A stretch of 42,627 bases of DNA, from UHGV virus genome UHGV-0123675, one strand, 5' to 3'. A program made the translations under genes and the position numbers. The notes under the pieces are model-generated. The model had not been told where the DNA came from, made no database searches, and saw nothing but the letters and a program-made list of their open reading frames with translations. The stretch comes from a virus. Shown here piece after piece: positions 10,082 to 15,168 of the stretch (position 1 is the stretch's first letter; each line of letters opens with the position of its first letter).

Positions 10082-10447
10082 ATGCGTGATATTCAGATGG
10101 TTTTAGATCGCTGGGGGGGCTGGGCATCAGCTGATAATTCTGGTGTTGACTATTCCCATATTGCCGCTGGCTTCAAGGGACTTTTACCGCAGACAAGCAA
10201 AACCAGATTGTCATGTACAGATGATGATGCGCTTATCATCGAAGGTTGCCTAGCACGACTAAAAAGCCGAAAGCCATATGAGCATTCGCTTCTTGTCGCT
10301 CATTACCTGTACGGTATCTCGAAGAGGAAGATAGCTAAAGCGCGAAAGAAGGATGAGAAACTGATACGAATTGAGATACAGATGGCTGAGGGGTTTATTG
10401 ATGGTTGCCTCTCGATGCTAGATATTCGGCTAGAAATGGATTTATAG
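10082..10447 (+). CDS. Q: Late-gene antitermination protein Q
   Basis: MRDIQMVLDRWGGWA...IAAGFKGL...DDDALIIEGCLARLK...AEGFIDGCLSMLD pattern typical of the ~120-aa Q family of enterobacterial lambdoid prophages; located before lysis region. Confidence 0.75.
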   Translation: MRDIQMVLDRWGGWASADNSGVDYSHIAAGFKGLLPQTSKTRLSCTDDDALIIEGCLARLKSRKPYEHSLLVAHYLYGISKRKIAKARKKDEKLIRIEIQMAEGFIDGCLSMLDIRLEMDL

Positions 10448-10453
10448 AAAGAC

Positions 10454-10482
10454 AAAAAAGCGGGTTTTAATCCGCTTTTTTG
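10454..10482. terminator. Bidirectional rho-independent terminator between Q and the convergent cargo operon
   Basis: AAAAAAGCGG-gttttaat-CCGCTTTTTT: GC stem flanked by A-run and T-run. Confidence 0.6.
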
Positions 10483-10979
10483 TTTAATGAATCTATGAAC
10501 TCTTTTGTTTTTTTATTATTTTCAGCTCGATGTAATAAGATGCTTTTGAATCGCTGTATTTCGCTATTTATAGAGCTGATAAAAAAGAAAGAATACAGTG
10601 AGGCCGCAATCCCTCCACCGCAGGATGATATGAAATACAAGTAACTCATTGAGTTTTTTGGTATGGCAAACATACCAATTGCTCCTGAAAAAGCAGCCAA
10701 GAGATAAAAAATAATTAAAAATGCGAGGTGTCTTTTTTTTATATCGATAATTGGTCGTAATCTTCTAAGTTCACTATCGGATAATGATATATTTTCGTCA
10801 GCTTCAGACACCTTGAAAAATGCTGCAATGCAATAGCTGAAAGGAAATGCCAGTAAGGTTATGAGTGACCATGGTGCAGAAGTACCACTTAAGTCGATTT
10901 TTTTGGAAGCAAAATAAAAAACAATAAAGCCAATAATAAAGGCGGAAAAGAATCTTAATATAAATTTAAAGAAACTCAT
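10467..10979 (-). CDS. Hypothetical small membrane protein (170 aa, about four predicted TM helices), second gene of cargo operon
   Basis: Four hydrophobic stretches (FSAFIIGFIVFYFA, LITLLAFPFSYCIAAFF, LAFLIIFYLLAAFSGAIGMFAI, ASLYSFFFISSI); 18 nt downstream of the 394-aa gene; AT-rich. Confidence 0.6.
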   Translation of the reverse strand: MSFFKFILRFFSAFIIGFIVFYFASKKIDLSGTSAPWSLITLLAFPFSYCIAAFFKVSEADENISLSDSELRRLRPIIDIKKRHLAFLIIFYLLAAFSGAIGMFAIPKNSMSYLYFISSCGGGIAASLYSFFFISSINSEIQRFKSILLHRAENNKKTKEFIDSLNKKAD

Positions 10980-10997
10980 CTCCGCCTCCCAATAAAT

Positions 10998-12182
10998 TTA
11001 GTTTTTAACTTTTACTTCTCCAGTTTGAACCTTTGAAGCTAACCATTTGTGCATTTGTAAATATAAGTCATTTTCATCAATAAGTCCATTATTATATTGG
11101 ACATTTATTTTTCCAGATAGTTTCAGATCGCTTCCTTTAATAACCCCTCCACCTTGTAGATTGATGCTGATATCTTCATCATCTAAATTCCGGAGTGATG
11201 TCGCCAAAGTATCGAGCACACGCTGTCCATCTTTATTTGTTTTTCGGAAATAAGTTATTTCTAAGTTGACTTGTAAATTTGACTCGTCAAGAGAATCTTC
11301 AAGTTGTAAATTATTAAACCATCCTTCACCAAAAGCGGCTTTCATTATATCACCGCCTTTTCCTGTAGGCATAAATTTAATCTTTTTGACCTTTTCTAAC
11401 GGTTCCCTAGTATTTACAGGAAGGTCAAGTGGGTCGCTAATGTTTTTTAAAGTTACAACGTCATTTGAATCTGCGTTTTTGATTGGTACACTTCCAAGAT
11501 TTATTTTCTTTACAGGGGACTCGTGCATTTTTCTTATGGTGTCCTCTGTCGGTTTATCTTGAAGGACAAGAAAATCATCACCATTAAAGATGTTGCCGAA
11601 TGAATGTATTAACCAATTCAGATGGTTTTCTATATCCTTAGTTCTAAGGGAAGATGATTGAACGATCATCACGTGATTGTCACGAATGCCAAAGTAAAGT
11701 ATTGAATCAACGAATTCTCTTGTTATTTTTTCTTTGTCATGTTCACTTATTGCATCATCTTCGGCTAGCTTTATCTGCTTCGAAGTTATAGCGTTGATGT
11801 CATAGTAATTGACATCATCAGCGATTGTCATAAGAGTTTGGCTTTTACCCTGCTCAAATAAAATAAGTTGTCCGAATAACACTGTTTTGAATGTACTGCT
11901 TCGGTTTACCATTCTGAAACCGCTGTTACTATCAGAAGGATTAATCTGCTCCCTGCGGGTGCTGACTTTGTGAGCAGTGCCATTCTCAGAAATTATTGAG
12001 TCAATGATCTGCTGAAGCGTTGCTGTGCAGTTAGGAATGACCGCGCGTTTATATTGAATGACCTTGCTGCGACTTTCTTTCATTAGCCTTGTTCCTTGTC
12101 TCGTGAACGTAACCATCTGATTAGGTTGATTTTGTTTTGTTGTAATCAACATGGCTAGTAGACGGTAACTGTCTGTAAACAA
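10998..12182 (-). CDS. Hypothetical protein (394 aa), first gene of cargo operon
   Basis: Long AT-rich ORF, no recognised motif by eye; sits in the Q-to-lysis moron hotspot. Confidence 0.6.
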   Translation of the reverse strand: MFTDSYRLLAMLITTKQNQPNQMVTFTRQGTRLMKESRSKVIQYKRAVIPNCTATLQQIIDSIISENGTAHKVSTRREQINPSDSNSGFRMVNRSSTFKTVLFGQLILFEQGKSQTLMTIADDVNYYDINAITSKQIKLAEDDAISEHDKEKITREFVDSILYFGIRDNHVMIVQSSSLRTKDIENHLNWLIHSFGNIFNGDDFLVLQDKPTEDTIRKMHESPVKKINLGSVPIKNADSNDVVTLKNISDPLDLPVNTREPLEKVKKIKFMPTGKGGDIMKAAFGEGWFNNLQLEDSLDESNLQVNLEITYFRKTNKDGQRVLDTLATSLRNLDDEDISINLQGGGVIKGSDLKLSGKINVQYNNGLIDENDLYLQMHKWLASKVQTGEVKVKN

Positions 12183-12278
12183 TAAGATAAATCAAAAAAT
12201 TCAAAAAAGCATTAACGCGGTCCGCATTTTCTAGATTACTGTGTTAAGAGTGGTCACTTAGACACGAACTTAAGCATT

Positions 12279-12306
12279 CCGCACCTCGCTTCGGCGGGTT
12301 TTTTTA
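12279..12306 (+). terminator. Putative rho-independent terminator (plus strand) in cargo intergenic region
   Basis: CCGCACCTCGCTTCGGCGGG hairpin followed by TTTTTTTAT. Confidence 0.4.
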
Positions 12307-12385
12307 TGTCTTTTGCAAAGACTTCTTGCTGCTGTTTACAACCAGAGTTATCTGTATGTCACGCATATAATTTTAGGTAAAAGAC

Positions 12386-12577
12386 ATGCTAAATCAGGAA
12401 GATATGACAGAAACCGCGAAGGCTGTTTTCAATGAGTTAAGCGATAAACCAGCAACGGCTGGGGAGATTGCACAGAATACCCACCTAAGCCGCGAACGTT
12501 GCCAGCTCATCCTCACGCAACTGGTGATGGCGGGGTTATCTGATTATCAGTTTGGATGTTATAAGCGTCCCAATTAA
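12386..12577 (+). CDS. Small winged-helix-like putative regulator (63 aa; PapI/FaeA-like, tentative)
   Basis: ATAGEIAQNTHLSRERCQLILTQLVMAGL resembles the helix-turn-helix of small PapI-type regulators; AGGT RBS. Confidence 0.4.
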   Translation: MLNQEDMTETAKAVFNELSDKPATAGEIAQNTHLSRERCQLILTQLVMAGLSDYQFGCYKRPN

Positions 12578-12922
12578 TGGAGGCTGTTTTTATCTCTAGA
12601 TAGTGTTATTTAAATCAATTGGTTAGTGATTTTCTATTTCTGACTTAAAACTCATTTTTGAGATAACTCATTAGCGAGTAGGATTTTTACCCTACGACAC
12701 ATGGGGTTGTCACGGGCTTTTAATGTCCTCGCTATGCTGCGGGACTGCTGGCGTGTTGCACCTCCCATGCCCTGACGGGCATAAAACAACCAGGCACATG
12801 CTGTGCACACATATAAGGGCTGCTGTGCAAATGCTGATCTTTTGTGAGTGATGTGTTGAATTAATGCTGGTTATTTGAGATTTTATTTTCTTATTCATTA
12901 AAATAGGATAACAGGAGAGCTC

Positions 12923-13189
12923 ATGAACCCCCCCTATGAATTCAGCGTTTACTACGACAAGTTAACGCTAGAGGATATTAACAATGTTGTGGCCTTGGTC
13001 GACCGCAATTTCAAGTTCAACTATCCCGGCACTCGCACATCTGTCACTTTTAACTCTACGTTTTCCAGTGTTGGTATTTCTGTACATAGTACGAGACAAG
13101 TTGCTGAAATGATTAAAGAAAACATACTATCTCGACATAAAGGATGTACTCTCCGCAAAGATGTTCATGAGTCGAAAAGAACTTTTTAG
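12923..13189 (+). CDS. Hypothetical protein (88 aa)
   Basis: ORF with GGAG RBS 6 nt upstream; AT-rich; no recognised motif. Confidence 0.4.
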   Translation: MNPPYEFSVYYDKLTLEDINNVVALVDRNFKFNYPGTRTSVTFNSTFSSVGISVHSTRQVAEMIKENILSRHKGCTLRKDVHESKRTF

Positions 13190-13583
13190 CTCCTAACTCA
13201 TTTCGTTATCAATCGGTATGTTGGGTGTTAGATAGTACCATCACAAGGCTACAAATGGTTGACAATAAAGCCTTCTAGTCAGAAGGCCGCATGATATTTC
13301 CGACAATATATGGGGTTAGTTGGAACCTCATCTACCCGGGCGCTAAGGCACCCAGGAACAGCGAAAGATAATCAGCTGTTTATCGATATCTAGACAATTA
13401 ACTACCAGTTTAATCATGCTGCCGCCATATCCATGGCGGCTTTCTGCTGTGAAAATGGGCGGCTGGTGGGTGTTGTAGCACCCGGCCAGCCATCAGCTCA
13501 TGCTTTCAGGTCACAAGCTAACCAAGGCCCACTGCTTTAGCGCAAAAGCAACGTGAGCCTATCAGAGTTACGCTTACTGATCT

Positions 13584-14635
13584 ATGAAAAATACTGTAAA
13601 AATAAACAGTATTGAGTTAATCAACGCTGATAGCCTGCATTACGTCGCCACCCTCCCGGATAACTCTATTGATCTGATAGTTACGGATCCGCCGTACTTC
13701 AAAGTGAAGCCCAACGGCTGGGACAACCAATGGAAGGGGGACGAGGACTACTTACGCTGGCTTGATAGCTGTCTGGCTGAGTATGCTCGCGTTCTTAAAC
13801 CTGCTGGCAGCATTTACCTGTTTTGCGGTCACCGACTGGCCTCAGATATAGAGATTATGATGCGTGCCCGGTTCAACGTTTTGAATCACATCATTTGGGC
13901 AAAACCATCGGGCCGTTGGAATGGATGTAATAAAGAAAGCCTGCGCGCGTACTTTCCATCTACGGAACGGATTTTGTTTGCTGAGCACTATCTTGGGCCG
14001 TACACAGGTAAAGAGGATGTTTACGAAAGGAAAAGCACAGAGCTAAAGCAGCACATTATGACGCCGCTGATTGATTACTTCCGTAATGCCCGTGAATCAC
14101 TGGGTGTCAGCTCGAAAGAAATAGCTGAGGCAACCGGAAAAAAAAACATGGCGTCACACTGGTTTGGTGCAAGCCAATGGCAACTACCAAATGAAGTGGA
14201 CTATAGAAAATTGCAGGAACTGTTCACGCGGATCGCTATCGATAAGCACATTCAGTTGAAGCTTGAACATCCTCACCACCAGCTGGTGGCTACCTATCAG
14301 TCATTAAACCGCAAGTATTGAGAATTGCTGGAGGAATACAAAACCCTCCGGCGCTGCTTCTCTGTTTCCGCTCTTGTTCCGTATACCGACGTATGGACGC
14401 ATAAGCCTGTTCAGTTTTATCCGGGCAAACATCCATGCGAAAAACCTGCCGACATGCTGAAGCAGATCATTAGCGCCAGCAGCAGACCAGGGGATATCGT
14501 TGCCGATTTCTTTATGGGCTCTGGTTCAACTGTGAAAGCTGCAATAGAACTTGGCCGTCGGCGATCGGGGTAGAACTGGAAGCTGACAGATTTATTCAGA
14601 CCACCGAAGAGGTGGAAAAACTGAGCAAAACATAA
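13584..14635 (+). pseudogene. DNA methyltransferase (DPPY motif IV ... FxGSG motif I, N4/N6 beta-class type) disrupted by an in-frame TGA and a downstream frameshift
   Basis: ORF 13584-14321 (LIVTDPPYF) and ORF 14325-14573 (HPCEKP..DIVADFFMGSGST) are in the same frame separated by TGA at 14319-14321; the expected C-terminus (IGVELEADRFIQTTEEVEKLSKT) continues in another frame from about 14564. Confidence 0.65.
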
Positions 14636-14781: not shown

Positions 14782-15168
14782 ATGTCCGATCCGATTTCCG
14801 GTACTGGGCTGGCTGGTGGTGTCCTGACGGGAGCCAGCGTCTATGGATTTCTGTCCGGAACCGATTATGGTGTGGTGTTTGGCGCATTTGCTGGGGCTGT
14901 ATTTTACATTGCAACCGCAGCGGATCTAAGTGCAGCGCGCCGACTGGCATATTTTCTGGTTTCGTATATCGCGGGGATCCTTTGTTCCGGGCTGGTGGGT
15001 TCAAAGCTGGCTCAGGCTACCGGCTACAGTGATAAACCACTGGATGCCATTGGCGCCGTAATCGTTTCTGCTTTAGCCGTCAAAATCTTGACGTTCCTGA
15101 ATAATCAGGATGTCGGCTCGCTGGTGGCGCTGATAACGCGCCGGGGAGGTTCAGGTGGTACAAAATGA
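14782..15168 (+). CDS. Putative holin (multi-TM small membrane protein)
   Basis: 128-aa protein with three hydrophobic helices and charged C-terminus, strong RBS AGAGGGGG, first gene of lysis cassette. Confidence 0.55.
   Translation: MSDPISGTGLAGGVLTGASVYGFLSGTDYGVVFGAFAGAVFYIATAADLSAARRLAYFLVSYIAGILCSGLVGSKLAQATGYSDKPLDAIGAVIVSALAVKILTFLNNQDVGSLVALITRRGGSGGTK

Follow-up and report, generated by a model that had tools for sequence, protein, structure and literature searches.

A two-gene cassette behind the antiterminator gene

The virus genome UHGV-0123675 (42,627 nucleotides, given as one strand and called the window below) carries between the antiterminator gene Q and the lysis region an AT-rich cassette of two minus-strand genes, here named A and B, which was analysed as a candidate exclusion system of the RexAB type. 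A two-gene operon at this place had been reported in a preliminary description made from the sequence alone, and its open reading frames (ORFs) were found as described: one at 10998..12182(-), encoding 394 amino acids (aa) from a TTG start, and one at 10467..10979(-), encoding 170 aa, with 18 nt between them. The guanine-cytosine (GC) content was 0.33-0.39 over 10400-12200, compared with 0.53-0.57 in the upstream phage genes. The cassette and its parts are:

10441 to 12203, no strand assigned: swapped AT-rich cargo cassette, from the end of Q to conserved late-region sequence (homology break and low GC)
10998 to 12083, minus strand: gene A, cytoplasmic RexA-fold protein, most likely of 361 aa, putative sensor (homolog starts, predicted structure)
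10980 to 10997, minus strand: A-B spacer of 18 nt with a GGGAGG ribosome-binding site (sequence reading)
10467 to 10979, minus strand: gene B, 170-aa four-helix inner-membrane protein, putative RexB-like effector (hydropathy, AlphaFold2 model, invariant residues)

In all homologs of A, and in the E. coli copy as annotated in RefSeq, the start corresponds to M34, and the alignment of PHROG 3482 to A begins at residue 34; A therefore most likely starts at M34 and has 361 aa. Judged from these alignments, the extra 99 nt of the longer ORF are most likely a non-conserved leader, and the 394 aa reported previously an ORF artefact. No hydrophobic segment was found in A by hydropathy analysis. An AlphaFold2 (AF2) model built from 55 homologs reached a predicted local distance difference test score (pLDDT) of 67.9 and a predicted template modelling score (pTM) of 0.65, with confident N-terminal, central and C-terminal parts; segment ~199-225, within the unmodelled part, was poorly conserved. 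Following structure comparison of this model, A was found to share the RexA/RdgC-type fold, RexA being the single outstanding match. As modelled, A would combine a split globular domain with a dimerisation domain, similar to RdgC, IML3 and CHL4. Compared with lambda RexA (PDB 8TWQ; PF15969), the fold is alike, but sequence similarity is lacking and A is ~80 aa longer; RdgC (PDB 2OWL) is a far weaker structural match and comes without a membrane partner. The viral predicted structures in BFVD, searched by Foldseek, contained five matches to A (E 1e-10 to 1e-5), all of them uncharacterised phage proteins with 277-322 aa. In a separate observation, two BFVD proteins of Myoviridae sp. ctgr818 (A0A8S5PCY0 and A0A8S5PEF7) gave an A-like match at E 1e-5 and a weak B-like match at E 2.1, which hints, at the level of predicted structures, at another pair of this kind.

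For B, four hydrophobic segments were found by hydropathy analysis, and the AF2 model (pLDDT 81.7) consists of four long helices at 3-27, 35-61, 68-105 and 111-169, in agreement with the earlier description of a protein with about four transmembrane (TM) segments 18 nt past the large gene. The C-terminal helix is long and basic. Invariance across 19 homologs or loci (20-53% identity) is limited to three residues, P46 in TM2 and E70 and R73 in the TM2-TM3 loop. This loop is rich in Arg and Lys and, following the positive-inside rule, would be cytoplasmic, so that B is predicted to have four TM helices, both termini in the cytoplasm and a central cytoplasmic loop. Lambda RexB (PF15968) has no sequence similarity to B, which is ~25 aa longer and differs in its C-terminal helix. 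In the Foldseek search of BFVD with B, the first match was a truncated copy from Shigella phage SfIV; Mycobacterium phage Sbash supplied the second, and best non-self, match, a protein of 165 aa (probability 1.00, TM 0.61/0.63).

Pairing, distribution and likeness to known systems

Homologs of A were followed by a gene of 165-225 aa with four hydrophobic segments at 23 of the 23 loci examined, at A identities down to 23%. The neighbourhood check proposed in the preliminary description thus showed the pair to be conserved together. Across these loci the two genes are separated by -23 to +52 nt or overlap, and the B partners were homologous where tested (37% identity, E 2e-31; 27%, E 1e-7; and E 4e-11). 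A repressor gene with helix-turn-helix and S24 domains directly precedes the pair, in the same orientation, in E. coli/phage Perceval, an Acinetobacter phage, Morganella, Methylobacter and Marinobacter, which makes five lineages. The gene order in E. coli prophages and phage Perceval is cI, A, B and then kil/gam/bet, which puts the pair where lambda has rexA-rexB after cI. In other slots the preceding gene is that for a P4-type primase (in Aeromonas, at one edge of an integrated element), a tail fibre (Serratia) or a transposase (one Marinobacter). In Stx2a_1447-type phages it follows Q on the opposite strand, as in the window, with a methylase, tRNAs and stx2 further downstream. The earlier equation of this slot with the one carrying stx in Stx phages is therefore approximate, as the pair indeed adjoins Q in Stx2a_1447 while stx lies past the methylase and tRNAs. 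Two distant A-B pairs have neighbours of another kind, one (L047 163-3928) adjoining genes for a ribbon-helix-helix regulator and a Ser/Thr kinase and the other (L023 4839-5711) an FRG-domain gene; both neighbourhoods look like defence islands.

The same A-B pair is present in the same Q-to-holin slot of phage SfIV and two complete E. coli genomes, with 80.7% nucleotide identity. In SfIV (L001 3482-4305), an IS1 insertion cuts B to 108 aa and leaves A intact, so A alone is tolerated. In ~140 other complete E. coli genomes, the same flanks enclose one unrelated 339-aa minus-strand gene, and the post-Q gap is a cargo-exchange slot holding at least two unrelated cassettes. The copy of the 339-aa gene in E. 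coli PCN061 (NZ_CP006636.1; L003 4174-5193; hypothetical WP_000357056.1) was considered as a partnerless A homolog and rejected, as it is unrelated to A; it is a candidate for another defence or moron cargo.

A word-indexed search with A returned 86 clusters, all from Gammaproteobacteria and all annotated 'hypothetical'. The exhaustive profile search of 1.84 billion representatives gave 760 proteins (clusters at 50% identity) with E <= 1e-3, of which 567 reached E <= 1e-10; almost all are full-length (315-360 aa). A second word-indexed search using a 137-sequence alignment gave essentially the same proteins among the best 8000 candidates. Named members are from E. coli, Klebsiella, Enterobacter, Shigella and Acinetobacter baumannii, and single variants occur on hundreds to at least 1000 contigs. 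Among 5426 complete E. coli genomes searched for near-identical DNA, 42 (including LF82) have the cI-adjacent variant, 13 the Stx2a-phage variant (O157:H7 Stx2a prophages among them) and 2 the variant of the window; the three together account for ~1% of these genomes. A 4.8-kb contig from a metagenome-assembled genome labelled Actinomycetes (L012; JAEWEJ010000284.1) carries an A-B pair 66% identical to that of the window. As all other close relatives are from Enterobacterales, this assignment is probably a binning error.

The hidden Markov model (HMM) and structure searches advised in the preliminary description had opposite outcomes. Scans of A, B and 55 A homologs with Pfam, NCBIfam and PADLOC 2.0 yielded sub-threshold noise only (bCoV_S1_RBD, GvpD, Anthrone_oxy), and PADLOC assigned zero families to both window proteins; structure searches returned the RexA fold for A and the 165-aa Sbash neighbour for B. 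A search of PHROGs with A and B retrieved only families of unknown function, and a sequence-profile search of PDB sequences gave no match. The B homolog of Acinetobacter had a lone 15.9-bit match to the PADLOC '4TM effector' model. An A homolog of Acinetobacter phage phi1_092021 (PQ859669.1; L009 3983-4984; 29% identity) was labelled 'DefenseFinder protein' by its depositors, which could make the family less novel; it had no defence match in PADLOC 2.0 or Pfam.

In lambda, rexA (279 aa, soluble) and rexB (144 aa, four TM) are separated by a 15-nt gap, and A and B have the same order with an 18-nt gap. They likewise are adjacent, co-oriented genes, the upstream one for a cytoplasmic and the downstream one for a small membrane protein. 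The earlier statement that order and sizes do not obviously fit a familiar system was therefore dropped, since they match rexA-rexB and A has the RexA fold. Lambda rexAB lies in the cI operon, whereas the pair of the window lies after Q on the opposite strand. Sbash gp30 and gp31 have 372 and 165 aa, compared with 361 and 170 aa for A and B. In Sbash the two genes lie away from the repressor and are served by a promoter of their own (PMC6426596); the window pair likewise lies away from a repressor and presumably has its own promoter. Within the gp30/gp31 defence the effector is gp31, a RexB-like 4-TM protein that no longer confers defence once R70A or D73A is introduced into its central cytoplasmic loop (PMC6426596); the charged central-loop residues of B are its invariant E70 and R73. 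Sbash gp30/gp31 and Gordonia phage CarolAnn gp44/gp43 are Rex-like defences of actinobacteriophage hosts, unlike A-B, and the Sbash proteins have no significant sequence similarity to A and B. Mycobacteriophage Butters gp30/gp31, a soluble 403-aa protein with a 187-aa 4-TM protein located after the lysis genes, is also counted as RexAB-type. It shares no sequence similarity with A and B, and its cytosolic protein is reported to be the effector, so that the roles are reversed. RexABpp of Pseudomonas putida prophage P1 (PP_5643/PP_5644) was compared with A-B by description only; for PP_5643, a probability above 95% to RexA (8TWQ/PF15969) is reported.

Kiwa (KwaAB) and the 4-TM effectors of CBASS and Pycsar likewise combine a small multi-pass membrane protein with a soluble protein. 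A-B had no PADLOC match and no cyclase, and its gene order is opposite to that of Kiwa; it was not assigned to any of these systems, and the earlier decision to set Kiwa and Pycsar aside was upheld. A 2026 paper puts the number of described Rex-like systems at only five. In the literature searched, no paper was found describing or testing the A-B family; the E. coli prophage screen of Brenes & Laub 2025 could contain it.

Cassette borders, presumed expression and neighbouring genes

In local alignment, homology to the PCN061 prophage, which has a different cargo, ends at 10440 and restarts at 12204; the cassette borders were therefore placed at ~10441 and ~12203. The following features lie at these borders:

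10082 to 10447, plus strand: antiterminator Q gene, left border of the slot (PF06530, E 4e-53)
10452 to 10483, no strand assigned: hairpin between the convergent Q and B genes, bidirectional terminator-like (12-bp stem, flanked by A and T runs)
12084 to 12203, minus strand: leader and presumed promoter region of the A-B operon, including the non-conserved N-terminal extension of the 394-aa ORF (sequence reading)
12285 to 12306, plus strand: intrinsic-terminator-like hairpin (12285-12298) with T run, outside the cassette (hairpin scan)

The preliminary description had the operon bracketed by terminators. Both hairpins were recovered, but the plus-strand one is located outside the swapped cassette. 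Terminator scanning gave 6 terminator-like sites compared with 3.1 +/- 1.5 expected; taken alone, each site is suggestive at most, and it is their positions that make sense. Block 12204-12273 is 90% shared with prophages holding other cargo, and 12274-12323 remained unaligned. The plus-strand terminator probably belongs to the late operon and would be tR'-like, and together with block 12204-12273 it would represent the late promoter with its terminator. The cassette would thus have Q on one side and the late promoter on the other, with transcription leading away from that promoter. A promoter scan of 12084..12203 gave no match that passed, and by eye weak sigma-70-like matches only were seen; the promoter of the A-B operon is nevertheless presumed to lie in this region.

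Upstream of the cassette are genes for an antirepressor, a DUF968 protein and Q; downstream are a small winged-helix-like ORF, a DNA methylase, a holin (14782-15168), a GH19 endolysin and a spanin. The nearest named homolog of B, with 99% identity, is from Citrobacter freundii, and the window is therefore probably a Citrobacter prophage. The small ORF (12386-12577, 63 aa), directly past the plus-strand terminator, has weak winged-helix matches (DprA_WH, TrmB) and 75% nucleotide identity in the Stx2a_1447 phage, where it adjoins the A-B pair of that phage. A second AT-rich variable insert at 12562-13432, with an 88-aa ORF (12923-13189) lacking a Pfam match, is missing from the flank-sharing E. 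coli PCN061 and Stx2a_1447 prophages. The methylase gene (13584-14573) is broken by one in-frame stop (14322-14324) into ORFs of 245 and 82 aa, both matching PF01555, which may indicate a pseudogene, a sequencing error or a read-through site.

Interpretation of the A-B pair

The cassette was interpreted, with a probability of about two in three, as a prophage-borne two-component exclusion (abortive infection) system of the RexAB type, belonging to a family that is unannotated in databases. A-B would then probably be a highly diverged relative of lambda RexA/RexB and a new lineage of a known class. Fold, architecture and context support a soluble sensor with a small membrane effector; the proposal in the preliminary description of an effector-type anti-phage moron thus stands as a general idea and is, overall, partly supported.

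The divergent orientation, the upstream region of its own and the terminator shared with Q suggest that the pair is expressed in the lysogen. A promoter of its own would drive transcription divergent to that of the late operon, with the shared terminator as insulation. By analogy with RexA and P. putida RexApp, A would stay in the cytoplasm, probably as a DNA-binding dimer, and detect a product or a replication or recombination intermediate of an infecting phage. Activated A may then act on the conserved cytoplasmic TM2-TM3 loop of B, that is, on E70 and R73. As proposed for RexB, Sbash gp31 and RexBpp, B could oligomerise into a channel or otherwise damage the membrane. Loss of membrane potential and adenosine triphosphate (ATP) would leave the infected cell unable to support phage growth. 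Abortive infection of this kind would need both genes, for which their co-occurrence serves as sole proxy.

Several results weigh against a RexAB-type system. With the Pfam and PADLOC models of RexA and RexB, no member of the A or B family was matched: the RexA models (PF15969 and PADLOC) found neither A nor any of 55 family members at E <= 1-10, and the RexB models (PF15968 and PADLOC) neither B nor its homologs. The same models used on the lambda proteins as positive controls gave E of 1e-61 to 1e-110 (1e-97 and 9e-110 for RexA, 8.5e-92 and 8.6e-61 for RexB). Comparison of the family profiles with RexA, RexB, Sbash gp30/31 and Butters gp30/31 by hhalign and hmmsearch gave probabilities <1% and bit scores of ~0. 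The predicted structures have their own limits. The model of A is of moderate confidence and residues 199-273 are unmodelled, and no protein named RexA was among its BFVD matches. For B, RexB was not in the top 50 matches in BFVD, the Sbash match had an E of 0.09 with four-helix membrane bundles being generic, and its UniProt/BFVD entry was equated with Sbash gp31 by organism and length only. In addition, the window pair is located after Q and does not adjoin the immunity repressor, the typical neighbour of RexAB-type pairs in temperate phages and prophages, and the functions proposed (lysogen expression, DNA binding, A-B interaction, toxicity and phage protection) are putative.

The negative profile tests are weak, since the RexA (10 sequences) and RexB (9 sequences) profiles are shallow (effective sequence number, Neff, ~2), which in turn is due to RexA relatives being few and close in phage and viral-contig collections. 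Searches of B against RexB by BLASTP, hhalign and hmmsearch were all negative, and A aligned with Sbash gp30 by hhalign gave E 0.08. The Rex-like proteins of lambda, Sbash and Butters did not detect each other by BLASTP either (E > 0.08), and Sbash gp30 and gp31 have no match in Pfam or PADLOC. As accepted Rex-like systems are mutually undetectable by sequence, 'RexAB-type' denotes a class by fold, architecture and mechanism, and lacking sequence similarity is, on these comparisons, normal for it. A and B accordingly fall outside the RexA and RexB sequence families, and their membership of the RexAB-type class is supported.

Four other explanations were considered; strict pairing, a conserved loop and such varied contexts are harder to reconcile with them. 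A could mainly serve the prophage itself, as a DNA-binding regulator of RexA/RdgC type that acts on the phage life cycle (switch bias or recombination), with B as an accessory tether and defence secondary or absent. The shared RexA/RdgC fold would suit such a role, as would the non-specific DNA binding of lambda RexA and its ability to stabilise the lytic state in the absence of RexB (PMC11077077). One member of the A family has moreover been deposited as 'Recombination-associated protein RdgC', and in a survey of lambdoid phages it was remarked that 'RdgC homologs' just left of cI might act like RexA (PMC12315714). The Pfam RdgC model, however, matched no member of the A family, which was therefore not placed in the RdgC family. 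B also accompanies A at every locus examined and is strongly constrained in its cytoplasmic loop, and the pair occurs in non-lambdoid contexts without a cI/Cro switch nearby (P4-type primase, transposase); a regulator is considered unlikely. Alternatively, B, helped by A, might exclude superinfecting phages at the membrane, where it would block receptor function or the entry of their DNA and leave the cell alive and growing. Many prophage exclusion proteins are small membrane proteins, and B, itself small and located in the inner membrane, is encoded in a prophage moron slot. An injection blocker would not be expected to have a large, conserved partner in the cytoplasm whose fold is of the DNA-binding type, though, and the nearest structural analogues act after injection (PMC6426596), which makes this explanation improbable.

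A similarly low probability was given to an addiction (toxin-antitoxin-like) module, in which B would be a membrane toxin restrained by A and would stabilise the prophage or cassette rather than act against phages. Tight linkage, mobility between unrelated slots and the AT-rich, foreign composition would agree with this, and imbalance of RexA and RexB is toxic in P. putida (PMC12894663). Against it, order and sizes are unlike those of typical type II toxin-antitoxin modules, no match to an antitoxin-type DNA-binding domain was obtained, and SfIV tolerates the IS1-truncated B with intact A; besides, addiction and abortive infection are not mutually exclusive. Least probable, by a small difference, is a moron serving host fitness, virulence or lysis timing, or a conserved pair resembling Rex by coincidence. 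The inferential nature of the functional assignment, the negative Rex-family sequence tests and the vicinity of the lysis genes could be cited in its favour, but the pair lies on the opposite strand, outside the late transcript, occurs beside repressors and in satellites far from lysis genes, and has RexA as outstanding structural match.

An extension of the RexAB-type interpretation was entertained only tentatively and is rather doubtful. In it, A-B would be a large unrecognised Rex-type lineage with Stx2a phages, E. coli LF82, and Klebsiella and A. baumannii prophages among its carriers. The middle segment of A would be a fast-evolving module for trigger specificity, and the Q-to-late-promoter gap of SfIV/Stx-type lambdoid phages a dedicated defence hotspot with exchangeable content, its transcription opposing that of the late operon.

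Among known phage-exclusion systems, Rex is the oldest, going back to Benzer's rII work, and its trigger and mode of action are unsettled. A-B is credible and widespread as a system of this class, though not categorically new; the family would be the sixth Rex-like lineage and far more widespread than the others. As Pfam, NCBIfam and PADLOC 2.0 miss A-B, so do inventories of prophage defences and host-range predictions for phage therapy in Enterobacterales and Acinetobacter. If the tentative extension given above holds, the family would offer many natural A-B alleles, from which the way Rex systems sense an infection and open the membrane could be worked out.

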